Source of the DNA: a virus
IMG/VR virus record: IMGVR_UViG_3300029554_000001
Direction: 5' to 3' (one strand)
Length of the DNA: 64,000 bases
Below the pieces are notes generated by a model that saw only the letters and a list, made by a program, of their open reading frames with translations, had not been told where the DNA came from and did not search any database. A program made the position numbers and the translations under genes. Below, in pieces: positions 18,561-41,560 of the stretch (positions are counted from its first letter, which is position 1; the number at the start of each line of letters is the position of its first letter).

Positions 18561-18826
18561 ATTTTCCAAAAAAGCAGCCTTTAGAATCTACTAAATGGCT
18601 AAAATATAAATTTAATAGAAAAGAAGATAATATTGAAGATGCTCAGACAAATTTGTTAAACTGGACAATTCTTAGTTATAATCCTGTTCAAAAAGATTAT
18701 GTTTTAGCTGGTGTAATTACTAAAGTTACAGAAGATTATGTGGAATTTTTAGGAGACCCTTCTGTTGTTAATACCAGATGGTTTCAGGAATCGTCTGTAG
18801 GGCATAGTTTGGAGTGTTTAAGTTAA
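18557..18826 (+). CDS. Hypothetical protein
   Basis: 89-aa ORF translationally coupled to its neighbours. Confidence 0.6.
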   Translation: MNFPKKQPLESTKWLKYKFNRKEDNIEDAQTNLLNWTILSYNPVQKDYVLAGVITKVTEDYVEFLGDPSVVNTRWFQESSVGHSLECLS

Positions 18827-19437
18827 TGAATTATTATATTTCAGATTTGCACTTTGGGCATAAAAACATTATTAATTTTGACCATCGCCCATATGATACA
18901 ACAGAAGAAATGGAGCTTGGCTTAATTTCTCGTTGGAATAAACAAGTTTCAAATGCAGACCATGTATATGTACTTGGAGATTTTCTGTGGAAAGCAGGGT
19001 CAGATGAATGGATTCGTATTTTAAATAAGTTAAACGGTAATGTTCATTTAATTCAAGGCAATCATGACTGTAACCAATATTCTACAGGAGTTAGGAAAAA
19101 ATTAGCTGAAATTTGTCATTATAAAGAAGTAACTGAGACAGTTGATGGTAAACTTTATAGAGTAATTCTTTCTCATTTTGCAATTCTTTCATATTATGGG
19201 TCTTGTTATGATAATTGTTTCCATTTACATGGACATACTCATACAACCAAAGAACAAGACTTGGTAGAAGATTTTGCTAAAATGGCAAAAGAAAAATTAA
19301 AAAATTCCAATGGGAATGAATATTTAAATAGAGCACAGATGATTAATGTTGGATGTATGATGCCTTATATGAATTATACTCCACAAACTTTTGAATATCT
19401 TTTGATGAAATATAAGAAGGGAGAAATAAAGGCGTAA
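18826..19437 (+). CDS. Calcineurin-like metallophosphoesterase
   Basis: DLHFGH, GDF, GNHD and HGHTH motifs. Confidence 0.85.
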   Translation: MNYYISDLHFGHKNIINFDHRPYDTTEEMELGLISRWNKQVSNADHVYVLGDFLWKAGSDEWIRILNKLNGNVHLIQGNHDCNQYSTGVRKKLAEICHYKEVTETVDGKLYRVILSHFAILSYYGSCYDNCFHLHGHTHTTKEQDLVEDFAKMAKEKLKNSNGNEYLNRAQMINVGCMMPYMNYTPQTFEYLLMKYKKGEIKA

Positions 19438-27024: not shown

Positions 27025-28284
27025 ATGGAATATTGTAAATATCTTATTTTAGTAGACCCTAATAATAATGGGGTTGATTCAAATAAATTCTACAAAATGG
27101 CTGGAAATGGTGATGATACGTTTACTGTAGAATTTGGTCGTGTTGGTGCCACTCCTCAGACTAAAACTTATCCTATGTCTAAATGGAATTCTACTCTTGC
27201 CTCTAAGTTGAAGAAGGGATATGTTGACCGTTCTGATTTGATGCAGGAAGTTATTGCTGATTCCAAAATTGAGGATAAGTCTAATGGAGTAGATGAATTT
27301 AGTTTGGTTCAAAACCTATCTGTCCGAGAGATTGTTAAACGTCTTTGGGATTATGCTAATAAGACTATTCAATCTGCTTATTCTGTTCGTGCTGAAGCTG
27401 TTACTCAGGCTATGATTGATGCTGCTCAGGAAAAGATTGACTATATTGCAGCGAATTACAAAAACTGGTCTGTTGAGGAATTTAACAAGAATTTAAATGA
27501 GTTGTTCATTATTGTCCCTCGTAAGATGAAGCGTGTTTCTGACTGTCTTGTTTCTGATTCTTCTGAATACGACAAAAAGCTTTCTGAGGAACAAAGCTTG
27601 CTTGATACTATGGCTGGTCAGGTTTATAAGCCAAAGGCGAGAATTGTTGATGCTGGTTCTGAAATTAAGGCTTCTGAAAGTATTTTACAGAAGATGGGTA
27701 TTACCATGGAAGAAGCTACTCAGGAAGATATTGCTAAAATTAAAAAGGCAATGGGGGATTCTGCTGGAAAGTTTTACAAGGCTTGGCGTGTTACTAATCT
27801 TGAGACTGAAGAAAGATATCAGAAATTTACTTCAGAAAATAATATTGGTAATGTAAAATTATTCTGCCATGGTAGCCGAAATCAGAATTGGTTTAACATT
27901 CTTAAGATGGGTTTAAAGATTCGCCCCGCAGGAGTTATTACAACAGGTTTGATGTTTGGAAAGGGCGCCTATTTCTCGAATAGTGAGAAGTATCATGGAG
28001 GGGTAGCCAAATCTATTGGTTATACTTCTTTAGGTGGATATTGGACTCGTGATTATCAGAATTGCGGCTTTATTGCTTTCTTTGATGTGGCTATTGGAGA
28101 TAGTGTTGATGCCTATTCTTTTGATTCTAAGTATTATTCTTATAATCTTGAGAGGCTAAAAAAGGACAATCCTAAAGCTTGGAGTTTGTGGGCTCATGGC
28201 AATACTTCTATGCTTCGCAACGATGAAATTATCGTTTACGATGATAGACAAATGACTATTCGATATTTAGTGGAGATTAGATAA
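27025..28284 (+). CDS. WGR domain + PARP catalytic domain protein
   Basis: N-terminal KFYKMAGNGDDTFTVEFGRVGA (WGR). C-terminal H-Y-E signature: LFCHGSRNQNW, GKGAYFS, NDEIIVYD. Confidence 0.8.
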   Translation: MEYCKYLILVDPNNNGVDSNKFYKMAGNGDDTFTVEFGRVGATPQTKTYPMSKWNSTLASKLKKGYVDRSDLMQEVIADSKIEDKSNGVDEFSLVQNLSVREIVKRLWDYANKTIQSAYSVRAEAVTQAMIDAAQEKIDYIAANYKNWSVEEFNKNLNELFIIVPRKMKRVSDCLVSDSSEYDKKLSEEQSLLDTMAGQVYKPKARIVDAGSEIKASESILQKMGITMEEATQEDIAKIKKAMGDSAGKFYKAWRVTNLETEERYQKFTSENNIGNVKLFCHGSRNQNWFNILKMGLKIRPAGVITTGLMFGKGAYFSNSEKYHGGVAKSIGYTSLGGYWTRDYQNCGFIAFFDVAIGDSVDAYSFDSKYYSYNLERLKKDNPKAWSLWAHGNTSMLRNDEIIVYDDRQMTIRYLVEIR

Positions 28285-29042: not shown

Positions 29043-29531
29043 ATGATTGGTGAAATGCAGACTGTTTCTAGCGTAACTTTTGGTATTCCTTCTGATTTTC
29101 CTTCTCTTGTAGACTCTGTTGTGGGTTCTCTTAAAAAGGGATATAGAGATTATTGTTTTACAAATAAGCAACTAAAAGAAATTATTGAAAAATGCCACGA
29201 GGCAAATGTAAGTTTTGCTTATCGTAAGCAGTTAGATGAAGATTACAAGATTGAATATATTGAACTTATTCCTTGTACTTTTTATTTCGCAGAAACAGTC
29301 GAGGAAAATAAAGTCGAAAACATTCAGGTAGCAATGGAAAATCTTCCTGTGGCATTAATTTTCTGTCCTAAAAATAATAAGACTGATATTACTATTGATG
29401 CTGATTATCAGGAAAAGAATGAAAAAAGGGCAAAGAGTTATAAGAAGCTTGCATATTTCGATGATGATGGTTGTCCAGTATATATTGAAGACCTTACGAG
29501 AATGAGAAAGGAAAAAGAAAATGGAGTATAA
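29043..29531 (+). CDS. Hypothetical protein
   Basis: 162-aa ORF; no family recognised. Confidence 0.6.
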   Translation: MIGEMQTVSSVTFGIPSDFPSLVDSVVGSLKKGYRDYCFTNKQLKEIIEKCHEANVSFAYRKQLDEDYKIEYIELIPCTFYFAETVEENKVENIQVAMENLPVALIFCPKNNKTDITIDADYQEKNEKRAKSYKKLAYFDDDGCPVYIEDLTRMRKEKENGV

Positions 29532-30354
29532 AACATTAGGCGATAGAATGAAAGGAGCTTACGAGAATAAATATCGCAATTATCTTCCTGAGAATCTTCC
29601 TGTTATTGTTAGGCTTGATGGGCAGCACTTTCATTCCTTCTGTCGTGGTATGAAGAAACCTTTTGACCCAATTTTTGTTAAAACTATGCAACAAACTATG
29701 CTTAAGCTCTGTGAAATTATTCCTAATGTTAAGTTTGGTTATGTTGAATCTGATGAAATTTCTCTTGTCATGATTCAAAGTGAAAGAAATTCTCAGCCTT
29801 GGTTTGATAATAATATTCAAAAGATTGTTAGTACATCTGCTGCGCTTTGCACTCTTTGGTTTAATAATTATTTTGCTGAGAATACTATTATTGATACAAC
29901 TTTGGATATCTTTAATATGGACCAAGATTCTTATGATTGGCGAATGGTTCGTAAGGGAAAAGAAATGCCTACTTTTGATAGTAGAGTATTTGTTGTCCCT
30001 GCCTTTGAAGTGCATAATTATTTTGTTTGGAGACAGCAGGATTGTACTCGAAATTCTATTCAGGCAGTTGCTCAATCTTTGTATCCTCAAAAAGAACTTC
30101 ATGGTATTAACACTACTAAATTGCAGGATAAGATGTTTACTGAAAAGGGTGTAAATTGGAACGATTATACGACAGTAGAGAAACGTGGTACTTGTGCTTA
30201 TCGTGTTCCTACTACTGTTATTGGCAAAGATGGTCAGGAGGCTATTCGTTATAAATGGGTTCTTGATTATGAAATGCCGATTTTAACAAGTGAAGAGGGT
30301 AAAAACTTTATTAGTCAAAAGGTATTTACCAATGAGTTTATTCAAAAATCCTGA
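29521..30354 (+). CDS. Thg1-like protein (tRNA-His guanylyltransferase family 3'-5' nucleotidyltransferase)
   Basis: IVRLDGQHFHSF, KPFD, GYVESDEISLV, FDSRVFVVP....YFVWRQQDCTRNS and EKRGT align with the Thg1/TLP signature blocks. Confidence 0.85.
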   Translation: MEYKTLGDRMKGAYENKYRNYLPENLPVIVRLDGQHFHSFCRGMKKPFDPIFVKTMQQTMLKLCEIIPNVKFGYVESDEISLVMIQSERNSQPWFDNNIQKIVSTSAALCTLWFNNYFAENTIIDTTLDIFNMDQDSYDWRMVRKGKEMPTFDSRVFVVPAFEVHNYFVWRQQDCTRNSIQAVAQSLYPQKELHGINTTKLQDKMFTEKGVNWNDYTTVEKRGTCAYRVPTTVIGKDGQEAIRYKWVLDYEMPILTSEEGKNFISQKVFTNEFIQKS

Positions 30355-30748: not shown

Positions 30749-30817
30749 TATTAATCTATTGACAAAAAATTAAAATTGTGCTATATTATTTTTATAAAAA
30801 GAAAGGAGATAAATCCA

Positions 30818-31345
30818 ATGCAGTTTCAAGTTATGAGTCGTAGAGATTGTGTTAAGTATAGTTATGGTTCTCATGAAGAATCTTCTATTGTAATTAGCAT
30901 TAACGATTCTGCCGATATTGGAGTGCGTCAACTTCCTAACAAGTTTAATAATATTAAAGCGCAATTATCTCTCTTTTTTGATGATATTCAGCCATATAGA
31001 GGTATGAAATACTGGAAGAAAGATGAAGGCGTAATTATAGAAAATTATACAAACGCAGATGGGTTTGTATATGAGTCTCGCATGTATCAGCTTATGACTG
31101 AAAAAGATGCTAAGAAAATTATTGGTTTTGTCAATAAATGGTATAATAAAGTAGATAAGATTATTGTTCATTGTAATGCTGGTATTAGTCGTTCTTCTGG
31201 AGTTTGTGCTGGTATTATGAAATGTTTTACTGGGGATGATAGCCAGATTTATGATAATCCGTATTATCATCCAAATACTTTGTGTTATAATCTTATTTTA
31301 AATGAATATTACAAGGAAGGAGGAAAAAGCAATGGAGAGGATTAA
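30818..31345 (+). CDS. Cys-based phosphatase (PTP/dual-specificity-like, HCX5R)
   Basis: IVHCNAGISRSSG active-site loop. RBS AAAGGAG before ATG 30818. Promoter TTGACA..TATATT upstream. Confidence 0.7.
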   Translation: MQFQVMSRRDCVKYSYGSHEESSIVISINDSADIGVRQLPNKFNNIKAQLSLFFDDIQPYRGMKYWKKDEGVIIENYTNADGFVYESRMYQLMTEKDAKKIIGFVNKWYNKVDKIIVHCNAGISRSSGVCAGIMKCFTGDDSQIYDNPYYHPNTLCYNLILNEYYKEGGKSNGED

Positions 31346-31975: not shown

Positions 31976-32061
31976 GCGGGTATGGTGGAATTGGTAGACA
32001 CACTTGATTTAAGTTCAAATGTCTTGCAGACGTGAGGGTTCGAGTCCCTCTACCCGTACCA
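31976..32061 (+). tRNA. tRNA-Leu (anticodon TAA), class II
   Basis: Acceptor GCGGGTA/TACCCGT (G1.U72), loop TTTAAGT, long variable arm, T-arm GAGGG-TTCGAGT-CCCTC, encoded ACCA. Confidence 0.85.
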
Positions 32062-32151
32062 TTCGCTTTTGCGGAACAAACTTGAGGCGAGGGAAGTTAG
32101 AAAACAGTAGTACCTGTACTATGAATTGATTTATAACTCGCCCACATATTA

Positions 32152-32227
32152 CGGGGATTAGCGCAGTTGATAGCGCGCGTGGTTTGGGACCATGAGGCCG
32201 TGGGTTTGAGTCCCACATCTCCGACCA
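32152..32227 (+). tRNA. tRNA-Pro (anticodon TGG)
   Basis: CGGGGAT/ATCTCCG, D-arm GCGC..GCGC, loop TTTGGGA, T-arm GTGGG-TTTGAGT-CCCAC, ACCA. Confidence 0.85.
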
Positions 32228-32265
32228 TATTTTTTAAATTTGTTACAAAAAGTGAGGAATTAATT

Positions 32266-32577
32266 ATGCAGAAGAGTTGGAATAAGTTTGTTGCTGGTCT
32301 TCTTGTTGTTGTGATTTTTGTTGCAGTTTTGGCATTGTCTGGTTGTAACAATAGCAAGAATAGTATCGGGGCTGATGTAGATAGCGTTCCTGTTGGTTTT
32401 ACTGATACTGGTTATATGGTAAAGAATGAACAAAATCGTGTTTATCATATTGTTTCTGATATGAATGGCTGGCTTTATTATTGTTCTGATGTTGAAGGCA
32501 ATCTTACTCCTATTCTAAATGCCTTTGGTACTCCTACTAAGGATACTACTCCTTTTGAGGAAATTAATAATGGTTGA
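32266..32577 (+). CDS. Lipoprotein
   Basis: Signal peptide with lipobox: MQKSWNKFVAGLLVVVIFVAVLALSGC. Confidence 0.7.
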   Translation: MQKSWNKFVAGLLVVVIFVAVLALSGCNNSKNSIGADVDSVPVGFTDTGYMVKNEQNRVYHIVSDMNGWLYYCSDVEGNLTPILNAFGTPTKDTTPFEEINNG

Positions 32578-32932
32578 AAATTATTCTCCCGATGAAAAGT
32601 TCCTTACTCAAGAATTTACTCTAAAGAGAGATGAGTTGGGAAGCTGGCTTACAGATGCAATGTGGGAAGGTCTTAAAGATTGTTTTAGGACTCCCATTTG
32701 CGAAGAAATGACTTGTGAGAAAGATATTGGCTATGAAAGAGTCGTTGGGTTTGTAAGAACTCTTTATGTTGACCCTGAAAATAATTTTGTAACATTTGAG
32801 GGGCTTTTTTGGCCTACGTATTCTTCTAAAACTAAAGAAGAGTGGAATAATATTAATCTTTCTGGTGTTTCTTTTTATGTTGTAGGAGAAAAGAATCCTA
32901 CAAAGATTCCTGTGTCTTGTTTTACAGTGTGA
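32570..32932 (+). CDS. Hypothetical protein
   Basis: ATG overlaps the upstream stop. Confidence 0.6.
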   Translation: MVENYSPDEKFLTQEFTLKRDELGSWLTDAMWEGLKDCFRTPICEEMTCEKDIGYERVVGFVRTLYVDPENNFVTFEGLFWPTYSSKTKEEWNNINLSGVSFYVVGEKNPTKIPVSCFTV

Positions 32933-32940
32933 GGTAAATT

Positions 32941-33375
32941 ATGTCTAAGAAGAGTTTTAAATATCGTAATTAGGTTGTTTGTCCGAAATGTCATCAAAAG
33001 TATTCAGCTAATTCTAATTATGAATGTCCTTATTGTCATACAAAATTCTACGACTTGAGTTTTGTTGATACAAAAACAGAAAATGGTTCGCCTGTTTATG
33101 TAAGATATAAATGTAATGGGTATACTGGCTTTGCAGAAAATCCTAAAGAAGAGTATGATGTATTTATTACAGTAGCAACATTAGGGATTAATGTCGAAAA
33201 CAATTTTAGTCATAATTATGATTATGTTTATAATTTTCGAAATGAATTTTATGCAAGACATTTACAAACCTCTTCTTTTAATGTAAAGGCAGAAATGGAA
33301 GCATTAGCTACTTCAGGAGAAAACGGTGAGCCTATTCTCTTTGTAGTTGAAGCTGTCCCTAAGAAGAAAAAATAA
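32941..33375 (+). CDS. Hypothetical Zn-ribbon protein (1 in-frame TAG)
   Basis: MSKKSFKYRN-TAG-VVCPKCHQ...CPYCH. TAG 32971 joins to the track ORF at 33055. Confidence 0.6.
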
Positions 33376-33381
33376 GGTATG

Positions 33382-33456
33382 CGTCTATAGTCTAACTGGA
33401 TAAAACAAATCTCTCCTAAAGATTAGTTCTGAGTTCGAGTCTCGGTAGGCGTGCCA
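33382..33456 (+). tRNA. tRNA-Arg (anticodon CCT)
   Basis: GCGTCTA/TAGGCGT, loop CTCCTAA, T-arm CTGAG-TTCGAGT-CTCGG, GCCA. Confidence 0.85.
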
Positions 33457-33469
33457 GAAAGGAAAAGAT

Positions 33470-33709
33470 ATGCCCAAGTGGTTGATTATTGGAATTGTTT
33501 TAATTCTTAATCATATTCTGTGGATTTTCTTTGCTCATGTAATGAAGTGCATCGCAGAAAAAAATGAAAATTATTGGGATTTTAAGGCTGACCCATTTGA
33601 ATCTTTGGGCGCATTTTTCTTTCCCTTATTTGTATTTATTTTTTCTGCTGCTAAGTTTGTCAGTAGAAAAGCCATTTATTCTGGCAAATTTGATGATAAT
33701 GAAAAGTAA
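33470..33709 (+). CDS. Small membrane protein
   Basis: Two hydrophobic helices; RBS GAAAGGAAAAG upstream. Confidence 0.6.
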   Translation: MPKWLIIGIVLILNHILWIFFAHVMKCIAEKNENYWDFKADPFESLGAFFFPLFVFIFSAAKFVSRKAIYSGKFDDNEK

Positions 33710-33791
33710 AGGAAATAAAAAAATTCTTTTATTAAATACTTGACAGATTTAAATATCTGTGTTACCCTATAAGAGAAGTGAGGAACATAAG

Positions 33792-34079
33792 TTGGAACTT
33801 TCTAAGAATCCTTCAATTAGATTCCTAACAGTTGTAAATGGTAAGGCTTGGTGTGATAATGATTCCGAAACTAAAAAGTTTAAGTTGACTAATACACCTC
33901 CTGAGCCTTTAAGAAAAGCTGTAGATGTTATTGCAGAAGATTTGGGAATTGATTTTCCTATGAGTTCTGCTAATTATGTTGCTAAAGTATACAAAGATTT
34001 TCTTGTAAAACATTTTGATTCATACCATCAGTATTATAAAAAGTTACAGGAAAATTTGCAAGAAACAGATAAAGAATAA
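33792..34079 (+). CDS. Hypothetical protein (TTG start proposed)
   Basis: The track GTG start at 33759 lies inside the promoter. TTG 33792 follows GTGAGGAA. Confidence 0.5.
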   Translation: MELSKNPSIRFLTVVNGKAWCDNDSETKKFKLTNTPPEPLRKAVDVIAEDLGIDFPMSSANYVAKVYKDFLVKHFDSYHQYYKKLQENLQETDKE

Positions 34080-34090
34080 AGGAGAAGGTT

Positions 34091-34564
34091 ATGTCAGTGT
34101 CTATTATTCAGGGAGATGTCCTTAAGACTTCGGCAAAGTATATTTGTCATCAGGTTAATACCTTTGGTGTAATGGGCGCTGGTGTTGCTCTTCAAATTAA
34201 GAAGAATTATCCTCATGTTTATTTGGAGTATAATAAGTTTTGTAGTTATCATACTCCTGAAGAGCTCTATGGTAAAGTTCTTCGAATTGAGGAAAATAAA
34301 GATAGAGTTTTCTTGAACATGTTTTCTCAGATTGGTATTGGTGGACCAAATGTAAACACCAATTATGAATATTTTCATGAATGTCTTCTTAAGATTCGTG
34401 AAATGATTCCTATTGGAGAAGAGATTGCTATGCCTTATATGATTGGGTGTGGTCTTGCTGGTGGAGATTGGTCTATTATTAGCGCAGATATTTCTGATAC
34501 TTTAGGACTAAGCCATATTGTACGTTTGTATGATTTTAATGGCGTGACTTCTGTGAAAAAGTAA
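34091..34564 (+). CDS. Macro domain protein (ADP-ribose binding/hydrolase)
   Basis: ICHQVNTFGVMGAGVALQIKKNYP and MPYMIGCGLAGGDW match the macro-domain signature. Confidence 0.8.
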   Translation: MSVSIIQGDVLKTSAKYICHQVNTFGVMGAGVALQIKKNYPHVYLEYNKFCSYHTPEELYGKVLRIEENKDRVFLNMFSQIGIGGPNVNTNYEYFHECLLKIREMIPIGEEIAMPYMIGCGLAGGDWSIISADISDTLGLSHIVRLYDFNGVTSVKK

Positions 34565-34566
34565 TT

Positions 34567-35040
34567 ATGAAAGTTTGGCTTAAATATATAGATTATTGTT
34601 ATGAAGATTATTCTCTTGATGCTGTAATGACAGAAGAGGCTATGCTTAAAGATAAACAGAGTTATTATCTTGAAGCGACTGTTAAACTTTCTGAGGATAT
34701 TAAATATCTTACAGATAAAGTAGAAATTGCTAAAAAAGAAAGACAACCTTATATTGAACAGCATAAAGAATATTGTCAGAGAAAGAATGACTTAATTAAA
34801 TCTTTAGATTCATTAGCAACTCTTTCTGATGACCAACAAAAACGTATTTATATTTTACTTAAAGATGTAAAAGCAAAGTTGCGCAAATATACAAAAGAGA
34901 TTGAAAGAAAAAGTTTTTATATCAAAGATTTAGAACGAAAAATTGAAAGACTCAAAAACCAAACTGAGGAAGAAATTCTTGATTCTTATTTAAGAGAAAA
35001 TCGTATTGCTTATGAGAGTTGGGAAGTTCTTGAACATTAA
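34567..35040 (+). CDS. Coiled-coil protein
   Basis: 157-aa ORF rich in K, E and heptad-like repeats. Confidence 0.6.
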   Translation: MKVWLKYIDYCYEDYSLDAVMTEEAMLKDKQSYYLEATVKLSEDIKYLTDKVEIAKKERQPYIEQHKEYCQRKNDLIKSLDSLATLSDDQQKRIYILLKDVKAKLRKYTKEIERKSFYIKDLERKIERLKNQTEEEILDSYLRENRIAYESWEVLEH

Positions 35041-35197
35041 ATATTAATTAAGATAGATACTCCATTGGTTAAGTCTACGTTTGTCTGGTTAAGCTCATTA
35101 CTTTACTGGTATCTTAGTAGGAAACCTATCAGGCTAGCATGAGGTCTCTACGGAGCGTGGGGTTTGATACCATTCATGCGTGAGTGGTATCATATAT

Positions 35198-35273
35198 GCA
35201 GGATTAGTGTTAGCGGTTAGCACGACGGTCTTCCAAACCGTAAGGGCGAGTTCGAATCTCGTATCTTGCTCCA
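35198..35273 (+). tRNA. tRNA-Gly (anticodon TCC)
   Basis: GCAGGAT/ATCTTGC, ACGGT-CTTCCAA-ACCGT, GCGAG-TTCGAAT-CTCGT, TCCA. Confidence 0.9.
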
Positions 35274-35295
35274 TTAAATTTTATTTAATAAACAC

Positions 35296-35324
35296 TTGAC
35301 AAAGCGTTTGTTAGATGTTATAAT
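35296..35324 (+). promoter_or_regulatory. sigma70-like promoter
   Basis: TTGACA, 17 nt spacer, TATAAT. Confidence 0.65.
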
Positions 35325-35351
35325 TCAAAATGTAAAAAGGAAGTACGAAAA

Positions 35352-35798
35352 ATGACTGATATTACCCCTATCGTAGTTGCTGTAATTGGTTTGTGCTCTT
35401 TGATTTTTACAATCGTTCTTATTCCTTATCTTAAGAAGAAGGGTAAGTTGGACGATGTTAATCATGCTCTTACTCAAGCAGAACTTATTCATAAGTATGC
35501 TTTGATTGCAGTTAAGGCTGTTGAGCAGATGTTCCCTCGGGAAATTGAAAAGCGTTTACAGGAAGCAACAAAGTATTTTAATCGGCAGATGGAAGCTCTT
35601 GGTATTACTCTTGATGCAGATGAAGTTCGTAAGGCTATTGAAGCCGCTGTTTATGAGGTGAATCGTGAACTTCACGATGAAAAGTTGAAGGAGAGCCAGC
35701 TTCAAAATACCAATCCTGTTCCTTCGAATGACAAGATTGACAACACTGGTAATGTTATCCCTGATGAAGATACTGTAACTGAAGAAGCAGTAGGCTAA
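35352..35798 (+). CDS. N-terminally anchored membrane protein (LL-H holin-like)
   Basis: A single N-terminal TM (ITPIVVAVIGLCSLIFTIVLIPYL) followed by a charged helical tail. Functional call is weak. Confidence 0.6.
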   Translation: MTDITPIVVAVIGLCSLIFTIVLIPYLKKKGKLDDVNHALTQAELIHKYALIAVKAVEQMFPREIEKRLQEATKYFNRQMEALGITLDADEVRKAIEAAVYEVNRELHDEKLKESQLQNTNPVPSNDKIDNTGNVIPDEDTVTEEAVG

Positions 35799-35953
35799 GA
35801 TAATTTTCCTTTCTTATCTTAATAAATGTGTTGTTGAGACGCAATTACTCAGCGTCTATAAATAAGTTAAGTAACGTGAGGTTTGTTGGTAAAATACGTA
35901 AGTCCTTTCAGGAATGAAAAAAACCAATATTATTAAAATATAAGGAGGCTCTT

Positions 35954-36691
35954 ATGAAACATACTGTTATGGATTAGATTACAGATAAAGAATTTGAACA
36001 AATAGTTAAAAATTCTTATTCTTATCGAGAAGTAGCTGAAAAATGTGGGTATTGTTGTATAAGTGGAGCTTCTTCTAATATTGTGAAAAAGAGAATTTAG
36101 AAATTAAATTTAGATGTTTTTCATTTTAAAAAATCGCTTCATGTTTATCGACCAGATGATGAAATTTTTGTTGAGGATTCAAAAGTAGGGCAGACAGTTT
36201 TAAGAAAACGTTTTTTAGCCTTGAATGTAGTTGAATATAAATGTTCAATATGTGGATAGGAACCATTTTGGAATGGAAAGCCTTTATCGTTAACATTAGA
36301 CCATATAAATGGTAAAAACCATGATAACAGGTTTGACAATTTAAGGTGGGTTTGTCCTAATTGTGATAGATAGCTTCCCACTTTTGGACGGCGTAATGCT
36401 ATTCACGAAGCAAAATATAATTATTGTGTTGATTGTGGAATTGTTATTACTTTTAATGCAACAAGATGTAAAAAATGTGCAGATAAAGTTAAAGCAGAAA
36501 AACAAAAAAATATCAACAAACCAAACAGAGAAGAATTGAAAAAATTAATTAGAGAAAAGAATTTTTTAACTTTAGGAAAAGAGTTTAATGTCTCTGATAA
36601 TACTATTAGAAATTGGTGCGAAAGTTATAATCTTCCAAAAAAAACAAGAGAAATAAGATTAATAAAAGACCAAGATTGGGAATTTTTGTAA
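35954..36691 (+). CDS. HNH homing endonuclease (4 in-frame TAG)
   Basis: LDHINGKNHDNRFDNLRWVCPNCD (HNH), Zn ribbons, and a C-terminal HTH-like NTIRNWC. TAGs at 35975, 36098, 36257 and 36371; codon-by-codon check runs to TAA 36689. Confidence 0.8.
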
Positions 36692-36697
36692 TTAGAT

Positions 36698-36775
36698 GAG
36701 AGTATAGTTCAACTGGTTAGAATGCCGTCTTTACACGTCGGAGGCTTACAGGTTCGAGTCCTGTTACTCTCACCA
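36698..36775 (+). tRNA. tRNA-Val (anticodon TAC)
   Basis: GAGAGTA/TACTCTC, loop TTTACAC, ACAGG-TTCGAGT-CCTGT, ACCA. Confidence 0.85.
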
Positions 36776-36797
36776 TCAGACTTAAATTTAAACAAAA

Positions 36798-36921
36798 GTT
36801 GACACTCACAGCAAATTTATTTTATGTTTTTGGAATAACGTCGTGTAAGGTTCGACTCCTTATTAACAAATCCCTTGAGCAAGGAATAGTTAACCGTGGA
36901 TGGCTAGAAAAAAGTGTCAAG
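36798..36921 (+). ncRNA. ACAGCAA-stem module A (T-arm plus capped-hairpin payload)
   Basis: 5' G-TTGACACT-C-ACAGCAA ... AGTGTCAA-G 3' (8 bp, compensated variant of TAGAC/GTCTA). Payload is the T-arm TAAGG-TTCGACT-CCTTA (36846-36862) then the capped helix TTAAC...GTTAA. Confidence 0.7.
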
Positions 36922-36934
36922 ATTGCTCACTTAT

Positions 36935-37025
36935 GGAGTAGTAAGCCTAATTGGTAAGGCACCAGTTTGCTAAATTGGTAGTAGCTTGAAAGAGCGTACT
37001 GGTTCGAGTCCAGTCTACTTCGCCA
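36935..37025 (+). tRNA. tRNA-Ser (anticodon GCT), class II
   Basis: GGAGTAG/CTACTTC, CCAGT-TTGCTAA-ATTGG, long variable arm, ACTGG-TTCGAGT-CCAGT, GCCA. Confidence 0.85.
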
Positions 37026-37146
37026 CAGAATTTATTATAGCTGCTCGTAGTAAATTCGTAGTATTAGAAGCAGTAAAGGTACGAGTATGGTATCCGGCAC
37101 AGGAGTGGTCGTTAAGGGCGAGATAAAGCTGAACTCCTTTTTATAT

Positions 37147-37265
37147 CCCCATTAGTGTAATGGAGCATTCTCGTTAACTGACGTTGAGTAAACACTAAGG
37201 TAGCTCCTTAGTGATAACAGACACATCGGGAGAGGAAGTTGGTTCGAATCCAATTATGGGGTCCA
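37147..37265 (+). tRNA. tRNA-like gene with a 53-nt insertion in the anticodon loop (anticodon unresolved)
   Basis: Acceptor CCCCATT/TATGGGG (one mismatch), anticodon stem TCTCG (37169-73)/CGGGA (37227-31), T-arm GTTGG-TTCGAAT-CCAAT, TCCA. The insert contains an 8-bp hairpin CACTAAGG/CCTTAGTG. Confidence 0.55.
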
Positions 37266-37400
37266 GTAACCACGATACCGCCTTGAAAAAGGTCGTGGAG
37301 GTTCGCCTAACAGATGGAGTATCGCTTAATGTTAGGATGTGTATATGGCGCACCTAAGTTCAGACCGTTCAGAACCTACAACCATATTAGCGGTGACAGC

Positions 37401-37501
37401 TTGGAGAGACAGCAAATATGCGGCAACTGGTGTAATAATAAAAGTAGCCATGGACAATACTTTTATTATGTTTGGAGTTCGATTCTTCGATGCCGCTCCA
37501 A
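37401..37501 (+). ncRNA. ACAGCAA-led atypical tRNA-like RNA (module variant B)
   Basis: TTGGAG-AG-ACAGCAA-ATAT, then acceptor GCGGCAA/ATGCCGC, a 12-bp hairpin ATAATAAAAGTA/TACTTTTATTAT (loop GCCATGGACAA), T-arm TGGAG-TTCGATT-CTTCG, and T-CCA. The leader TTGGAG pairs with CTCCAA, overlapping the CCA. Confidence 0.5.
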
Positions 37502-37860
37502 AAGACAGAATGGTTAGATATTTCTTGATGTCTTCAAAAAACAAGAAATCCGTAAGGTCTGTACGAAACATTCCTTGGAATACAGTTTAGCTGGTTACAA
37601 TGTATTCGACACTGAACCGCCCTCCAAGTCTGATGGACTGGTAACAATAGAAAGACCGTTGCTTTGCTTAACTGGGTACGTTAAACCCTTATGCAATGAG
37701 CAAAACTGATAATGAAAATGACCAAGATAGTTGAGTGTAAGCCCCTTATAAGGAATAGCCTCTCCTCAGCCAAACCGAGGACAGATAAGTGAAAAGCTGG
37801 TCTGTCAGTAGTTATCAGTTTTTGTTCCTTATATATTTAATAAAATAAAAGGGTGTTTTT
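37502..37860 (+). ncRNA. ORF-free structured region (unknown RNA)
   Basis: GC-richer than the coding DNA. Long-range pairing AACTGATAA (about 37697)/TTATCAGTT (about 37812) and several local hairpins. Track ORFs here lack RBSs. Confidence 0.3.
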
Positions 37861-38181
37861 ATGGATTACATTGATAAGCAGTTTGCTAAACGTGGATATA
37901 AATTAGTACGTCAAAATGAATATGGCGCTTATTATGAAAGAAAAGATAATAAGTTTAATTATACAAGTGAGCTTGATATTATAGCCAAAGCAAATGGTAA
38001 GCATCTTGTTCAGTGTTATGATGCCCAAGTAGTTTATGGTCATCCTGAAAAGGATTCTAACAACTATCGTGTTATGAATGAAGTTGATGGAATTGATGCT
38101 TCTCTTTCTTTTTGGATTTGGTTAAAGTTTCATCAGCTTAAAAGAAAGTATAAATGGGATAAGGTGAAGAAACATGATTGA
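37861..38181 (+). CDS. Hypothetical protein
   Basis: 106-aa ORF after AAAAGGGTG. Confidence 0.6.
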   Translation: MDYIDKQFAKRGYKLVRQNEYGAYYERKDNKFNYTSELDIIAKANGKHLVQCYDAQVVYGHPEKDSNNYRVMNEVDGIDASLSFWIWLKFHQLKRKYKWDKVKKHD

Positions 38182-38446
38182 GACATATATTAAGAAGCCT
38201 GTTGCTGTTCAAGCAATTATTTGGACCGGCGATAATGAGGATGAAATTACAAGCTTTGTTGGTGCTCATTGTTGTGTTACGACAGAGCATACTATGAATG
38301 GCGTTAAGAAGAATCTTATTATGTATACTCTCGAAGGTTATCACTGTGCCTCTGTTGGCGATTATATTGTCAAAGGTATTAAGGGAGAATTTTATCCTGT
38401 TAAGCCTGATATTATGGAATTAACTTATGTTAAGGTGACTGAGTAA
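38174..38446 (+). CDS. Hypothetical protein
   Basis: Overlaps the upstream stop. Confidence 0.6.
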   Translation: MIETYIKKPVAVQAIIWTGDNEDEITSFVGAHCCVTTEHTMNGVKKNLIMYTLEGYHCASVGDYIVKGIKGEFYPVKPDIMELTYVKVTE

Positions 38447-38826
38447 TGGATACTTCTTTGTTTGAAATTGTTGGTCATTATTCTATTTGGACTGGTGAAA
38501 TTACTAAATTCCGAGTTGATGATATTCTAAGAGATAAAGAATTTAATTATTGGTATAAGATAGATTCTGAAACTATTGAATATCCTTGGGAAGTTCGTAT
38601 TTTAGATGCTACTCAAGTTTGGACTAATGCTGACTGTTATCAAGATAGTACATCAGGTAAATGGATTTATAGATGCATTCCTTATGACGGTTTAATCTTT
38701 ACCCTTGAAGCTAATTCTATGACAGAATTGGTAGACCTTATTAGAGATTTTGTTACTCCTCCTGAAGACATGGAAACTAAACTTGTTGCAAGTTCTAATT
38801 ATGATTGTTTTACTCAAAAGTTCTAA
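38446..38826 (+). CDS. Hypothetical protein
   Basis: TAATG coupling. Confidence 0.6.
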   Translation: MDTSLFEIVGHYSIWTGEITKFRVDDILRDKEFNYWYKIDSETIEYPWEVRILDATQVWTNADCYQDSTSGKWIYRCIPYDGLIFTLEANSMTELVDLIRDFVTPPEDMETKLVASSNYDCFTQKF

Positions 38827-38931
38827 TAAAGACTTGACAAAGATTTAAAAGTGTGGTAAGATAAATACATCTTAAGAGAAGAGAAAAACAAAAAACTTCT
38901 CAAAAAGACAAAAATAAATTTTAATAAGTGG

Positions 38932-38960
38932 TTGACATCTTAAAGATGATATGCTATAAT
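38932..38960 (+). promoter_or_regulatory. sigma70-like promoter (extended -10) driving an RNA cluster
   Basis: TTGACA, 17 nt spacer, TGcTATAAT. Confidence 0.65.
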
Positions 38961-38992
38961 AAGTGCATAAATAAAACCTCCTGAATAATAAA

Positions 38993-39109
38993 GTAGACTC
39001 TTACAGCAAATTTTCTAAAGGATAACACAATTGTCTTGAAAACAATCATTAGCGAGTTCGATTCTCGTCAGAGGGCGCTCTGTGGTGAATAATACGCAAA
39101 AGAGTCTAG
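38993..39109 (+). ncRNA. ACAGCAA-stem module 1 (anticodon-arm mimic, T-arm and capped helix)
   Basis: G-TAGACTCT-T-ACAGCAA ... AGAGTCTA-G. Payload is ATTGT-CTTGAAA-ACAAT (39030-39046; same loop as tRNA-Ser-TGA), T-arm GCGAG-TTCGATT-CTCGT, and the capped helix CAGAG-GGCG-CTCTG. Confidence 0.7.
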
Positions 39110-39121
39110 GTTAATTAATTT

Positions 39122-39197
39122 GGTCGGTTAGTCAAGTGGGCTAAGACACTGGCCTTTCACGTCAGTAGCACGGGTTCGAACCCCGTACCGACTACCA
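39122..39197 (+). tRNA. tRNA-Glu (anticodon TTC)
   Basis: GGTCGGT/ACCGACT, CTGGC-CTTTCAC-GTCAG, ACGGG-TTCGAAC-CCCGT, ACCA. Confidence 0.85.
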
Positions 39198-39370
39198 TTA
39201 TTCAAATCAGAAATCCGTTCTTATGATAGTGTGAGTAAGTTTTATCGGAATTAAATGAGGGGAACTTAAATCTATCGAAGGGTTAAGAAATAATTGTTTG
39301 ACGAAAAGTTGTTTCTCCTTTCTCTCTATCTGAGATGAATAATTTCCTTTCTGTAAGATGATATTGTAAA

Positions 39371-39504
39371 GTAGAGACTAACAGCAATTTTAAAATTATG
39401 TTAAAAAACCAAGCTCCCATTCTTCGGTTCGAATCCGAACGTCTTCAGTTGAAGTATGTAGCCAAGTGGTTTAAGGCAGGAGCCCATAATAACAATGTCT
39501 CTAG
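39371..39504 (+). ncRNA. ACAGCAA-stem module 2 carrying a circularly permuted tRNA-Gln-like body
   Basis: G-TAGAGAC-TA-ACAGCAA ... GTCTCTA-G. Internal order: GCTCC, var CATTC, T-arm TTCGG-TTCGAAT-CCGAA, acceptor 3' CGTCTTC, cap AGTTG, acceptor 5' AAGTATG, TA, D-arm GCC-AAGTGGTTTAA-GGC, A, GGAGC. Confidence 0.7.
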
Positions 39505-39511
39505 TATTTAT

Positions 39512-39588
39512 GCCCGTGTAGCTCAGTTGGTAGAAGCATTTGCCTTTTAAGCAAAGGGTCGAGAGTTCGAGTCTCTCCACGAGCACCA
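39512..39588 (+). tRNA. tRNA-Lys (anticodon TTT)
   Basis: GCCCGTG/CACGAGC (C3.A70 mismatch), TTTGC-CTTTTAA-GCAAA, GAGAG-TTCGAGT-CTCTC, ACCA. Confidence 0.85.
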
Positions 39589-39604
39589 AAAGCATTAGTA
39601 CATT

Positions 39605-39669
39605 GTAGACGCTTACAGCAATTTTAATTGTACTTATCTGTTAAATAAGAATACACAAAAAGCGTCTAG
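39605..39669 (+). ncRNA. ACAGCAA-stem module 3 (65 nt; bare anticodon-stem-loop mimic, GUU loop)
   Basis: G-TAGACGCT-T-ACAGCAA ... AGCGTCTA-G. The apical hairpin CTTAT-CTGTTAA-ATAAG (39633-39649) has the same 7-nt loop as tRNA-Asn at 40971. Confidence 0.7.
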
Positions 39670-39696
39670 CCCCTTTCTAAAGGAGAACAATTAAAT

Positions 39697-39781
39697 GGGT
39701 GAGTAGTGAATCGGCAAACACGCTTGACTGTAAATCAAGTTCCTGACGGAGTAGAAGGGTCGGCACCTTCCTCACCCACCA
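39697..39781 (+). tRNA. tRNA-Tyr (anticodon GTA), class II, unusual T-loop
   Basis: GGGTGAG/CTCACCC, CTTGA-CTGTAAA-TCAAG, long variable arm, T-arm GAAGG-GTCGGCA-CCTTC (G replaces T54), ACCA. Confidence 0.8.
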
Positions 39782-39807
39782 ATTTAAAATTTAAAGGAGA
39801 AAATATT

Positions 39808-39978
39808 ATGGGTTTTATGGGAGAAATTTCAGAAAATATTGGTTGGAATGATTGTATTAATTATCTTCTAAAAAATGTTGATAAATTTCAATCAACTTTA
39901 GAAGGTGGAGCTTATGATTATTTTCCAAATGATGAAATTAAAGAAATTTTAAAGAATTTAATTAGACCGGAAATCTAA
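39808..39978 (+). CDS. Hypothetical small protein
   Basis: RBS AAAGGAG before ATG 39808. The upstream part of the track ORF overlaps tRNA-Tyr. Confidence 0.55.
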   Translation: MGFMGEISENIGWNDCINYLLKNVDKFQSTLEGGAYDYFPNDEIKEILKNLIRPEI

Positions 39979-40000
39979 TAAAATTTTTGTTTTAAAACTC

Positions 40001-40029
40001 TTGACAAAATGAAAATTTTATGCTATAGT
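40001..40029 (+). promoter_or_regulatory. sigma70-like promoter (extended -10)
   Basis: TTGACA, 17 nt spacer, TGcTATAGT. Confidence 0.65.
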
Positions 40030-40106
40030 AAAAATATGATAAAGATACAAATTTATTTGTAAGCTAATTGTTCATTTTTTATTGTTCATAAAAGCATTCC
40101 TTTCAA

Positions 40107-40237
40107 GTAGACTCTAACAGCAACTTTACAATCACAAATGCTAAGGACCTGTTTGTTGGAGGTTCGAATCCTTCACTCCCGACCATCGGGAGTTAGCTCA
40201 ACGGATAGAGCAACAGATTTTGTAAAAATGAGTCTAG
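40107..40237 (+). ncRNA. ACAGCAA-stem module 4 carrying a circularly permuted tRNA with encoded ACCA
   Basis: G-TAGACTC-TA-ACAGCAA ... GAGTCTA-G with a second helix TTTACAA/TTGTAAA. Internal order: CCTGT, TTGTT, T-arm GGAGG-TTCGAAT-CCTTC, acceptor 3' ACTCCCG, A-CCA-T, acceptor 5' CGGGAGT (perfect 7 bp), TA, D-arm GCTC-AACGGATA-GAGC, A, ACAGA. Confidence 0.75.
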
Positions 40238-40292
40238 TTAATAAATTGACGCTCCTATTTTCTTCAAATAGGCAAATATAAATTCCTTTCAA

Positions 40293-40410
40293 GTAGACAC
40301 GTACAGCAAAATTACTTGATGCTTTAATGTGGAAAATTAACGATAAGGTTCGACTCCTTAATCTTCTTTAGAAGATGCGTGGTTGCTGGAAATCAAAAAA
40401 ACGTGTCTAG
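40293..40410 (+). ncRNA. ACAGCAA-stem module 5 (anticodon-arm mimic GGA, T-arm and capped helix)
   Basis: G-TAGACACG-T-ACAGCAA ... CGTGTCTA-G. Payload is TTAAT-GTGGAAA-ATTAA (40324-40340), T-arm TAAGG-TTCGACT-CCTTA (identical to module A), and ATCTTCT-TT-AGAAGAT. Confidence 0.7.
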
Positions 40411-40419
40411 GTTAAATAT

Positions 40420-40504
40420 GGCTGAGTGGCGAAATTGGCATACGCAGTTGCTTCAAGTACAACCCTCGAAAGAGATGTGGGTTCAAGTCCCACCTCAGCT
40501 ACCA
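40420..40504 (+). tRNA. tRNA-Leu (anticodon CAA), class II
   Basis: GGCTGAG/CTCAGCT, loop TTCAAGT, long variable arm, GTGGG-TTCAAGT-CCCAC, ACCA. Confidence 0.8.
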
Positions 40505-40970
40505 TAATTGCATCTCAATTGGCAGATAGCGAATGCAATTTATATTAAACTGCCCGATTCAGCAAGGATGGCTAAAGCCTTGTCGGTGCTCCATATATTT
40601 GAACTCATTTTTAGTCCGTTAAGCTAAAACCCTCTCTCCCGACCGAAGAAGGTGTAGAATACAAGTTAATGGTATTCGAATGGGAAGAACACCAACTATA
40701 AGATAAGGCAACTTACCAAGGTGCAAATATGGCAAGAAAACCTTTTGGACGAAATTGGTGCCGTGCTTACGGGGATAGATAGTTGCGCATCTATCTAAAC
40801 AAAAACTCTGATTACTGCAACTAAATCGGGGTAGGTATTGAGGTTATGGGTCATGTAACCTTAAAACACAATAAGCCGAGCATACTGCTTATTGCTCCTA
40901 ACAGGTGGTGCTGAGGATGAACAACAAAAGCCAAGTTATAGAGTTCTTGTAAAAAACTCTATTGTTATTT
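40505..40970 (+). ncRNA. ORF-free ~465-nt structured region (unknown RNA)
   Basis: No ORF in any frame in the track. GC-richer than flanks. Local helices include ATTGCAT/ATGCAAT and GATAGAT/ATCTATC. Confidence 0.3.
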
Positions 40971-41047
40971 GGAAGTATAGCTCAGTTGGCTAGAGCGCTT
41001 GGCTGTTAACCAAGATGTCACAAGTTCAAGTCTTGTTATTTCCGCCA
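40971..41047 (+). tRNA. tRNA-Asn (anticodon GTT)
   Basis: GGAAGTA/TATTTCC, CTTGG-CTGTTAA-CCAAG, ACAAG-TTCAAGT-CTTGT, GCCA. Confidence 0.9.
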
Positions 41048-41048
41048 A

Positions 41049-41125
41049 AAGTGGAGGGTGTAGGTTCGAGTCCTGCCCTGCTCGTGGGAAACCCTTGCAG
41101 GAAGCTGCTAGGTACAGCGCCACTT
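41049..41125 (+). ncRNA. Circularly permuted tRNA-like domain (no ACAGCAA stem)
   Basis: Closing stem AAGTGG/CCACTT. Order: var AGGGT, T-arm GTAGG-TTCGAGT-CCTGC, capped helix CCTGC...GCAGG, AA, D-arm-like GCTG-CTAGGTA-CAGC, G. Starts 1 nt after the CCA of tRNA-Asn. Confidence 0.5.
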
Positions 41126-41181
41126 AGAATTTCTTTCACCTTATTACGCGAAATATGGGATTGAGATGTTGCTTTAGTCGG

Positions 41182-41207
41182 GTTCTTTTACAGCAGAAAA
41201 TAAGAAC
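41182..41207 (+). ncRNA. Minimal hairpin bearing a TTACAGCAG loop (possible degenerate module)
   Basis: GTTCTT-TTACAGCAGAAAAT-AAGAAC. Confidence 0.3.
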
Positions 41208-41399
41208 GCACCTGTTTAATTGGGTTTTTTAGTTCAGTAAAAACAAGAAAAACCTCGGTTGTTTAGAAATTTTCTTCTGATATTGAATGAAAACATTTAG
41301 AGAATTCTCTCATTGCAATGCCGAAAGGTAGCAAGATATGAAAACAGCTAATTGGTGAACATATTTGCTACCGAGTAGGGATAAGAGAGAATTAAATAT

Positions 41400-41475
41400 G
41401 CTTTGGTAGCTCAATTGGTAGAGCAGTGGACTGAAAATCCACGTGTAGCCAGTTCGATTCTGGCCTAAAGCACCA
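41400..41475 (+). tRNA. tRNA-Phe (anticodon GAA)
   Basis: GCTTTGG/CTAAAGC, GTGGA-CTGAAAA-TCCAC, GCCAG-TTCGATT-CTGGC, ACCA. Confidence 0.9.
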
Positions 41476-41476
41476 T

Positions 41477-41560
41477 TGCTGGCGAGTGAAACGGATATAT
41501 AAATCACGCTTGGCTCATACCCAAGTAATAGTGGGTTCGACTCCCATGCTTCAGCAACCA
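41477..41560 (+). tRNA. tRNA with CAT anticodon (Met or Ile2), irregular acceptor/T junction and oversized D-loop
   Basis: CTTGG-CTCATAC-CCAAG is a perfect anticodon arm. T-arm GTGGG-TTCGACT-CCCAT. Acceptor TGCTGGC/TTCAGCA has 2 extra nt (GC) after the T-stem. ACCA. Confidence 0.55.

Follow-up and report, generated by a model that had tools for sequence, protein, structure and literature searches.

The Thg1-like protein (TLP) of Bacillus thuringiensis, BtTLP, repairs 5'-truncated tRNAs of many kinds in vitro by Watson-Crick templated addition of nucleotides in the 3'-5' direction (PMC3701042). In phages, a neighbourhood of Thg1, polynucleotide kinase (PNK) and RNA ligase genes was published in 2010, together with a possible anti-defence repair role for the copy of phage 201phi2-1 (PMC2904730), and a 2021 survey of jumbo phages placed Thg1, as a 5'-end restoration enzyme, within the phage RNA repair repertoire (PMC7824862). 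A role of phage Thg1 genes in tRNA modification or repair has already been proposed in discussions dating from 2010, 2013 and 2021 (PMC3601020, PMC2904730, PMC7824862). Here we describe a TLP gene found in a stretch of 64,000 nucleotides of viral DNA (IMG/VR record IMGVR_UViG_3300029554_000001), which we refer to as the window. Publications already cover the enzyme family, its occurrence in large phages, the linkage of its genes with those for PNK and RNA ligase and the view of it as a repair enzyme, and the window TLP is a new divergent member of a known gene family in an uncultivated phage lineage. The initial annotation of the locus connected the gene with nearby tRNAs that were thought to have defective 5' acceptor strands. 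The idea that these strands are edited is the sole novel element of that annotation, and the comparative data speak against it.

29521..30354, + strand: Thg1-like protein (TLP), 277 amino acids, ATG start, predicted template-dependent 3'-5' RNA nucleotidyltransferase.

The gene is a single long open reading frame (ORF) with an AGGA-type ribosome-binding site upstream of its ATG; any ORF that overlaps it, whether in another frame or on the complementary strand, is a low-complexity product of the AT-rich sequence. All five Thg1/TLP signature motifs quoted in the initial annotation were located in its product: RLDGQHFHSF at residues 31-40, KPFD at 46-49, SDEIS at 77-81, FDSRVFVVP at 152-160 and WRQQDCTRNS at 170-179. 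The protein scored 98.8 bits against Pfam PF04446 (Thg1; cut-off 29.2, E=3e-28) over profile positions 3-130 of 130, and it matched PHROG 4717, 'tRNA-His guanylyltransferase', with E=4.9e-77. NCBIfam contained no model matching it, and the score with Pfam Thg1C was 22.4 bits, under the cut-off of 26.3. The C-terminal Thg1 extension is present, with residues 146-271 aligning to residues 122-240 of BtTLP at 2e-28.

Among solved structures, the best match was BtTLP itself (PDB 4kgk, E=1.5e-58, residues 5-271), and weaker matches were obtained with Candida Thg1 (1.9e-13), human Thg1 (7.3e-10) and an archaeal TLP (1.9e-07). In BtTLP, roles have been assigned to the metal ligands D30 and D75, the carboxylate E76, K43, S74 and the HFH (PMC3701042). 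In the alignment, the three two-metal carboxylates are kept in the window protein as D33, D78 and E79 (BtTLP D30, D75 and E76), the activation-site residues as K46 and S77 (BtTLP K43 and S74), and the nucleotide-contacting HFH as H36-F37-H38 (BtTLP H33-F34-H35). At the segment where Candida Thg1 has WRQVDCHINNLYN, the window protein reads WRQQDCTRNSIQ, and the HINNLYN-type segment of Thg1 is absent. We assigned the protein to the bacterial type because it matches BtTLP far better than eukaryotic Thg1 and because WRQQDCTRNSIQ stands in place of WRQVDCHINNLYN. Judged by its sequence, the product of 29521-30354 is a genuine, intact bacterial repair-type TLP, and it is predicted to be a 3'-5' nucleotidyltransferase.

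Homologs of the window TLP were found by tblastn in 164 GenBank phage records, including phages of Bacillus, Caulobacter, Mycobacterium and Erwinia, the Prevotella Lak phages and others. All of these share less than 60% identity with it (best, 43%), and many are named tRNA-His guanylyltransferase. A megablast of positions 29000-33000 against GenBank phages gave no nucleotide match. In IMG/VR we collected 71 loci with a TLP; the L-numbers used below denote loci from IMG/VR that were compared with the window. Thirteen of them are close relatives, on contigs of about 120-220 kb, with an intact TLP of 92-97% protein identity, and two further relatives have a TLP of 56-57% identity. The close relatives of the window phage are metagenomic contigs only. 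The TLP gene lies less than 3 kb from a tRNA gene in 22 of the 71 loci.

The usual database name of the family, used in both PHROG and GenBank annotations, implies that TLP adds or restores G-1 of host or phage tRNA-His opposite C73. Addition of G-1 opposite C73 by bacterial TLPs does occur in vitro (PMC3701042). In addition, three distant phages (L041, 9523-9597; L044, 9524-9598; L042, 9809-9885) have a tRNA-His gene 190-480 nt upstream of TLP, which in these loci is located in or next to an array of some 25-35 tRNAs, although in arrays of this size adjacency to tRNA-His could be due to chance. Bacterial tRNA-His genes encode G at -1, and of the five such genes near TLPs at least four already encode it too; in those of L041, L044 and L042, G-1 pairs with C73, and L046 has A73. 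The fifth gene (L038) has T at -1 in the ARAGORN register, which is possibly off by one. Neither the 64-kb window nor the tRNA arrays of its relatives contained a tRNA-His gene by ARAGORN and Rfam, and the possibility that TLP serves a phage tRNA-His was rejected for the window phage for this reason. The sequence affinity of the protein to the repair-type TLP, and not to Thg1, also counts against such a function. On this evidence it is doubtful that the enzyme acts on G-1 of tRNA-His, and a dedicated role in G-1 addition is unlikely for the window phage, although the tRNA-His of the host might be a substrate.

To place the gene in its context, we compared the proteins of the window with all the loci and scanned the TLP neighbours with Pfam. 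The following genes of the window are concerned.

7622..8587, + strand: polynucleotide 5'-kinase (P-loop) fused to an HD phosphohydrolase (PNK/HD), RNA end-healing enzyme; Pfam AAA_33 6e-21, weak HD match.
8623..9981, + strand: T4 Rnl1-type RNA ligase; Pfam RNA_lig_T4_1 1.3e-12, PHROG 562 1.6e-33.
14553..15368, + strand: RlaP-like Pol-beta nucleotidyltransferase, 3'-end RNA repair; weak matches to PHROG 388 and Pfam NTP_transf_2 (7e-4).
18814..19437, + strand: calcineurin-like metallophosphoesterase; Pfam Metallophos_2 8.3e-08.

In L016-L023, L025 and L067, whose TLPs are 43-49% identical to the window protein, TLP forms part of a block of repair genes that is contiguous in most of these loci. 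The order in L020 is RNA ligase (PF21189 and PF09414), a small ORF, RlaP (PF10127), PNK (AAA_33) with HD, and TLP, followed by metallophosphoesterase, RecJ-like, GIY-YIG and PARP genes. The PNK/HD protein of the window, whose best PDB match is the kinase domain of Clostridium thermocellum Pnkp (4gp6, 2.7e-12), has a homolog immediately upstream of TLP in L016-L022 and L067. Similarly, the RlaP-like protein is 37-42% identical to the gene adjoining PNK and TLP in L016-L023, L025 and L067. It gave no meaningful match in the PDB, and its assignment is based on the L020 homolog, which scored 28.3 bits against Pfam RlaP PF10127 (cut-off 23). Proteins with the same Pfam domain as the metallophosphoesterase flank TLP in L020, L025 and L063, the likeness being that of a shared domain. 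In other arrangements, an RNA 2'-phosphotransferase (Tpt1/KptA) is directly upstream and a metallophosphoesterase downstream of TLP (L063-65), a poly(A)/CCA-type nucleotidyltransferase is directly beside it (L069), or a metallophosphoesterase is its neighbour (L025). As for the block of repair genes, the window itself holds homologs of its kinase and its nucleotidyltransferase; a ligase of the Rnl1 type is encoded there too, as is a metallophosphoesterase that shares the Pfam family of the one in the block.

Family membership, an intact active site and conservation of the gene are thus joined by a linkage seen in relatives, and because TLP adjoins RNA ligase, RlaP, PNK/HD and phosphoesterase genes in related phages, a role in RNA repair seems likely. 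We put at roughly 55% the probability that TLP serves, within a phage RNA repair kit, to rebuild the 5' strands of tRNAs of the host or of the phage. Working in the 3'-5' direction and with the intact 3' acceptor strand as template, the enzyme would restore the 5'-terminal nucleotides that a tRNA has lost. PNK/HD (7622-8587) would convert a 5'-OH into the 5'-phosphate that TLP requires and would also heal 3' ends; TLP would then activate the 5'-phosphate with ATP or GTP and add templated nucleoside triphosphates until the acceptor stem is complete. Nicks in the anticodon loop would be sealed by the Rnl1-type ligase (8623-9981), and lost 3' nucleotides would be restored by the RlaP-like nucleotidyltransferase (14553-15368). 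Such a kit would keep the tRNA pool usable against damage by host ribonucleases or toxins during infection. The substrate would be tRNA, the in vivo role may be counter-defence or quality control, a biological trigger is presumed, and TLP probably cooperates with PNK.

The initial annotation had also suggested that the enzyme counters host nucleases directed at 5' ends. This possibly holds, as it fits the gene context and is an inference found in the literature too (PMC2904730, PMC7824862), although no such nuclease was identified. Several points weigh against the repair role as a whole. The activity of phage TLPs is a predicted one, and the selective pressure is hypothetical because no host nuclease that truncates tRNA 5' ends has been identified. 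In the window, the repair genes are scattered over 23 kb, and their adjacency to TLP is seen in relatives only. The immediate neighbours of TLP in the window are an ORF of unknown function, a small ORF and a DSP-like phosphatase, with no classical repair gene among them.

29043..29531, + strand: ORF of unknown function, 162 amino acids; its stop overlaps the TLP start by 11 nt.
30776..31345, + strand: dual-specificity phosphatase (DSP)-type cysteine phosphatase, motif HCNAGISRS; Pfam DSPc 5.7e-07, under the gathering score; PHROG 5614.
27025..28284: WGR and PARP catalytic-domain protein; Pfam 1.4e-18; 1.2 kb upstream of TLP.

The arrangement of the reading frames suggests that the 29043-29531 ORF and TLP are translationally coupled. 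This ORF is kept directly upstream of TLP in the 13 close relatives, and its counterpart in L013/L014 shows 37% identity. It had no match in Pfam, PHROG or PDB, and the AlphaFold single-sequence model was unusable, with a predicted local distance difference test (pLDDT) value of 37.7. The DSP-type phosphatase stays beside TLP in L013/L014 and is found immediately upstream of it in L030/L031; its PDB matches were weak and to generic dual-specificity phosphatases only. One could speculate that it acts as an RNA end phosphatase, or as an RNA 5'-polyphosphatase after 3'-5' addition. Homologs of the WGR-PARP protein, with 44-46% identity, lie a few kb downstream of TLP in L018, L020-L022 and L067, which are loci with the contiguous repair block. 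A promoter and terminator scan of 26000-32600 gave promoter-like sites no commoner than in shuffled sequences, and no terminators.

Downstream of TLP lies a large tRNA array, from which the evidence for altered 5' ends had been drawn.

31976..45005, + strand: tRNA gene array, 20 genes, 19 with encoded CCA, starting 1.6 kb downstream of TLP.
39512..39588, + strand: tRNA-Lys(UUU), C3·A70 (ARAGORN acceptor-stem table).
44596..44731, + strand: tRNA-Ile(UAU)-like gene, A1·C72, with a 59-nt tRNA-like insert (44633-44691) in the anticodon loop; Rfam tRNA 49 bits.
44935..45005, + strand: CUA-anticodon (amber suppressor-type) tRNA, U7·U66, no encoded CCA; Rfam 36.8 bits.

ARAGORN found 17 tRNA genes in the array, and 20 once anticodon-loop inserts were allowed, all on the + strand between 31976 and 45005; the Rfam tRNA model gave 18 array matches at the gathering score. 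Most of the unusual pairs listed in the initial annotation were found. G1·U72 occurs in exactly five window tRNAs by ARAGORN, as had been counted: Leu-UAA 31976, Arg-CCU 33381, Glu-UUC 39122, Leu-CAA 40420 and Arg-UCU 44829. The C3·A70 pair of tRNA-Lys(UUU) is present at 39512-39588. The A1·C72 pair attributed to tRNA-Ile(UAU) is there at 44596-44731, although the gene can be called Ile(UAU) only after removal of the 59-nt insert from its anticodon loop. The U·U mismatch of the CUA suppressor tRNA is real too, but it is U7·U66, the seventh pair, and not close to the 5' end as had been stated. A further element, 'module 2' with A1·C72 and U4·C69, could not be recovered even at lowered ARAGORN thresholds, where the calls are mostly noise.

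These pairs could be taken as a sign of programmed 5' editing, in which mispaired 5' nucleotides (A1·C72, C3·A70, perhaps G1·U72) are cut off by a nuclease and refilled by TLP, as in amoebozoan mitochondria. The window does contain true mismatches at pairs 1-3, namely C3·A70 of tRNA-Lys and A1·C72 of the 44596 tRNA, but only in 2 of its 20 tRNAs, and in the phage family as a whole they amount to 3 of 69 unique tRNAs. Known mitochondrial 5' editing touches the first three acceptor pairs, and U7·U66 is therefore out of its reach. No editing nuclease was identified. The numbers of G·U pairs and mismatches along the acceptor stem were as follows.

This phage family, 69 unique tRNAs: G·U at pairs 1 to 7, 19, 7, 2, 15, 7, 0 and 1; mismatches at pairs 1 to 7, 1, 0, 2, 0, 0, 0 and 0.
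Other TLP-positive loci, 191 unique tRNAs: G·U at pairs 1 to 7, 33, 14, 9, 13, 16, 15 and 7; mismatches at pairs 1 to 7, 5, 1, 2, 4, 3, 2 and 4.

The position-1 mismatches in the other TLP-positive loci were mostly in initiator-type Met tRNAs. As controls without TLP we used 56 tRNAs, from the T5 region (23), the T4 tRNA region (8) and the whole FelixO1 genome (25). The control set is made up of three lineages, all enterobacterial phages, so that the test is small and rough; the tRNAs of related loci are not independent, and the whole-genome check for the absence of TLP covers FelixO1 only. At pair 1, the controls had 9/56 G·U and 5/56 mismatches. With these limits, a non-Watson-Crick pair 1 was found in 58/260 TLP-positive tRNAs and 14/56 controls (odds ratio 0.86, p=0.73, Fisher), and true mismatches at pairs 1-3 in 11/260 TLP-positive tRNAs and 5/56 controls (p=0.17, Fisher), the latter difference being in the direction opposite to the editing hypothesis. 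The rate of G1·U72 was 16% without TLP and 17% with it. The whole FelixO1 genome contains no TLP (best tblastn E-value 6) and nonetheless has five tRNAs with G1·U72, a tRNA-Gln with A1·C72 and a tRNA-Ala with U1·C72; a tRNA-Arg of T4 also has G1·U72. In this rough test there was no hint of an association, and weak 1:72 pairs appear as a general property of phage tRNAs, independent of TLP. It is clear that the non-Watson-Crick pairs on which the initial annotation built its 'defective' acceptor strands are real, but they are no commoner than in TLP-lacking phages and do not tie these strands to TLP.

Conservation among the relatives points in the same direction. G1·U72 of tRNA-Leu-UAA is invariant in 14/14 relatives, including the one with 57% TLP identity, while pairs 3:70 and 7:66 covary, and because G1 stays invariant when neighbouring stem pairs change together, it appears to be under selection. 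In tRNA-Arg-CCU, G1·U72 is kept in 12 of the 13 close relatives. C3·A70 of tRNA-Lys is kept in the window, L002, L003, L009 and L011, among which pair 5:68 changes from G-C to A-U, and in L014 the pair 3:70 is U3·G70. When protonated, an A·C wobble pair is isosteric with G·U. Wobble geometry is kept at Lys 3:70, be it as C·A or as U·G, which suggests that this structural feature is selected. Together, G1·U72 and Lys C3·A70 look like features under selection, and not like decay awaiting repair, as far as can be judged from comparing the sequences.

We also considered G1·U72 as a mark of TLP substrates and rejected it. A templated enzyme puts A opposite U72, and the conserved G1 therefore cannot be a product of TLP; moreover, templated repair would give A1, G1 is conserved, and TLP-lacking phages share G1·U72. 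A1·C72 in the 44596 tRNA is confined to the window genome, all seven orthologs (L076, L077, L079-L083) having G1-C72. These orthologs were retrieved in IMG/VR by an Arg-UCU pattern; a pattern search of IMG/VR with the 5' half of the 44596 tRNA returned one unrelated 4.6-kb contig only.

Changes from G1 to A1 recur among the close relatives, in L009/L081 (Tyr, Arg-CCU), in L005/L080 (Arg-UCU) and in the window 44596 tRNA. In L009, tRNA-Tyr has A1·C72 and Arg-CCU has A1-U72, and in L005/L080 Arg-UCU has A1-U72; the pair is A1-U72 where nucleotide 72 is U and A1·C72 where it is C. Polymorphism, sequencing error or a relaxed constraint on nucleotide 1 are possible explanations. The recurrence could mean that the nucleotide 1 encoded in the gene matters little, which, like the placement of TLP in one broad clade with the enzymes of mitochondrial editing (PMC3701042), would be in line with editing. 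Against this stand the rarity of mismatches in the window, their lack of excess over T4, T5 and FelixO1, the constancy of Leu G1 and of the Lys wobble, and the G1-C72 of all seven orthologs of the only A1·C72 in the window. We therefore regard programmed 5' editing as very improbable. A narrower form, in which TLP edits a few phage tRNAs by swapping C3 of tRNA-Lys and A1 of the Ile-like tRNA for nucleotides templated by the 3' strand, is hardly to be expected either. If it were true, tRNA 5' editing would be seen for the first time in a virus, and for the first time anywhere but in the mitochondria of amoebozoans and fungi, and it could account for the recurrent G1-to-A1 changes in related genomes. 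The initial view that a 5'-editing or repair activity would fit the locus is therefore to be divided: repair fits the gene context in relatives, whereas the link to editing is without support.

TLP might also act on RNAs other than canonical tRNAs, such as the tRNA-like modules, a Y-RNA-like element or the processing intermediates of insert-bearing tRNAs. The array holds several non-canonical tRNA-like elements, and TLPs need only a 5' end that is recessed against a template strand; a parallel exists in Dictyostelium TLP4, the substrates of which are not tRNAs. However, no element in particular was identified as having a recessed 5' end, the terminal stems of the inserts are fully paired, and the RNA-repair gene context fits tRNA substrates equally. 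Action on such RNAs is, in our estimate, rather improbable, and repair of tRNA 5' ends stays the preferred function.

Some elements of the array are recorded here in their own right. The 'Arg(CCG)' tRNA at 43720-43815 is 96 nt long, with an unusually long variable region; most of its orthologs have 74-76 nt, and that of L079 also has 96 nt. At 44292-44358 there is a tRNA-like element with a good T-arm, a 7-bp acceptor stem and no CCA, which was called at a lowered ARAGORN threshold only. At 40131-40229, inside the array, a sub-threshold match to the Y RNA-like YrlA (RF02553) covers the full model length (42 bits against a gathering score of 69, E=8e-7).

Three tRNA genes of the window have anticodon-loop inserts of 46-85 nt. 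tRNA-Gln UUG (43951-44110) has an 85-nt insert at 43985-44069 and the Ile-like gene (44596-44731) the 59-nt insert at 44633-44691. Both fold as tRNA-like minihelices, in which a terminal stem of 7 bp is accompanied by a hairpin resembling a T-arm and by a single-stranded tail, ACCA, and both are too short for group I introns. The Gln insert is missing from the near-identical orthologs in L077, L079, L081 and L082. In the relatives (L076-L083), the Ile-like tRNA carries differing inserts at differing loop positions (after nt 32 or nt 36), and the terminal stems of these inserts show changes that compensate each other. The third gene, at 37147-37265 (insert about 37177-37222), has C1-G72, a TCCA end and, according to where the splice point is placed, the anticodon AAC or CAC, and was not called by Rfam at the gathering score. 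Its insert of 46 nt contains an 8-bp hairpin and is kept in L081 (13339-13457), where the acceptor also shows C3·A70. As a speculation, the inserts could be excised by host tRNA end-processing (RNase P and 3' processing), after which the exons would be joined by the phage Rnl1-type ligase. A limited keyword search of the literature found no precedent for tRNA-like anticodon-loop inserts, and they look more novel than TLP.

By eye, a recurrent motif of approximately TTTAAAAGTA-N-AC-NN-TTACAGCAA was seen in tRNA spacers and inserts, at about 43820, 44015, 44130, 44410, 44490, 44640 and 44745. The orthologs of the CUA tRNA in L076 (2925-3229) and L080 (3341-3645) have an insert of 219 nt, the 3' end of which resembles that of a 710-nt insert in the tRNA-Leu(UAA) of L078; these inserts may be group I introns.

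The finding of TLP adds no new principle. The useful outcome is a negative one, namely that weak or mismatched 1:72 pairs should not be taken as evidence of editing. The in vivo role of bacterial and phage TLPs is a presumed one, and phage-host conflict is a setting of interest for it; a phage family that combines an intact TLP with a full RNA-repair kit and some 20 tRNA genes, none of them for tRNA-His, is a clean system for the question of 5' repair by TLP.

Compared with known systems, the locus shares single features with several of them. Many tRNAs encoded in the mitochondrial genomes of Dictyostelium and Acanthamoeba have mismatches in the first three pairs, whereas in the window phage mismatches are rare, not enriched over TLP-lacking phages and partly conserved as if functional. 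The mitochondrial 5'-editing TLPs of Dictyostelium and Acanthamoeba belong to the same superfamily as the window TLP and use the same templated 3'-5' chemistry (PMC3701042). Eukaryotic Thg1 has the same fold family and active site, but the match is far weaker (1.9e-13 to 7e-10), WRQQDCTRNSIQ stands instead of the HINNLYN-type segment, and the window phage is without a tRNA-His gene. With T4 Pnkp and Rnl1 and the bacterial Pnkp/Rnl/RlaP operons the window has in common a PNK-type kinase, an Rnl1-type ligase and an RlaP-like enzyme; T4, however, has no TLP, and its pathway heals and seals anticodon-loop nicks without rebuilding the 5' acceptor strand.

The PHROG 4717 phage genes, for example gp143 of Bacillus phage Bc431v3 and the gene of Pseudomonas phage 201phi2-1, are of the same family as the window TLP, and their carriers are typically large phages with many tRNA genes, like the window phage, although the protein shares no more than 43% identity with any phage homolog in GenBank. 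BtTLP (PDB 4KGK/4KGM) has the same catalytic carboxylates, activation Lys and Ser and HFH, and is likewise a stand-alone single domain with the C-terminal extension. In comparison with BtTLP, whose activity is known where that of the window protein is predicted, the window TLP has an insertion of about 22-25 residues (121-145) between two aligned blocks and is encoded by a phage, near a tRNA array.

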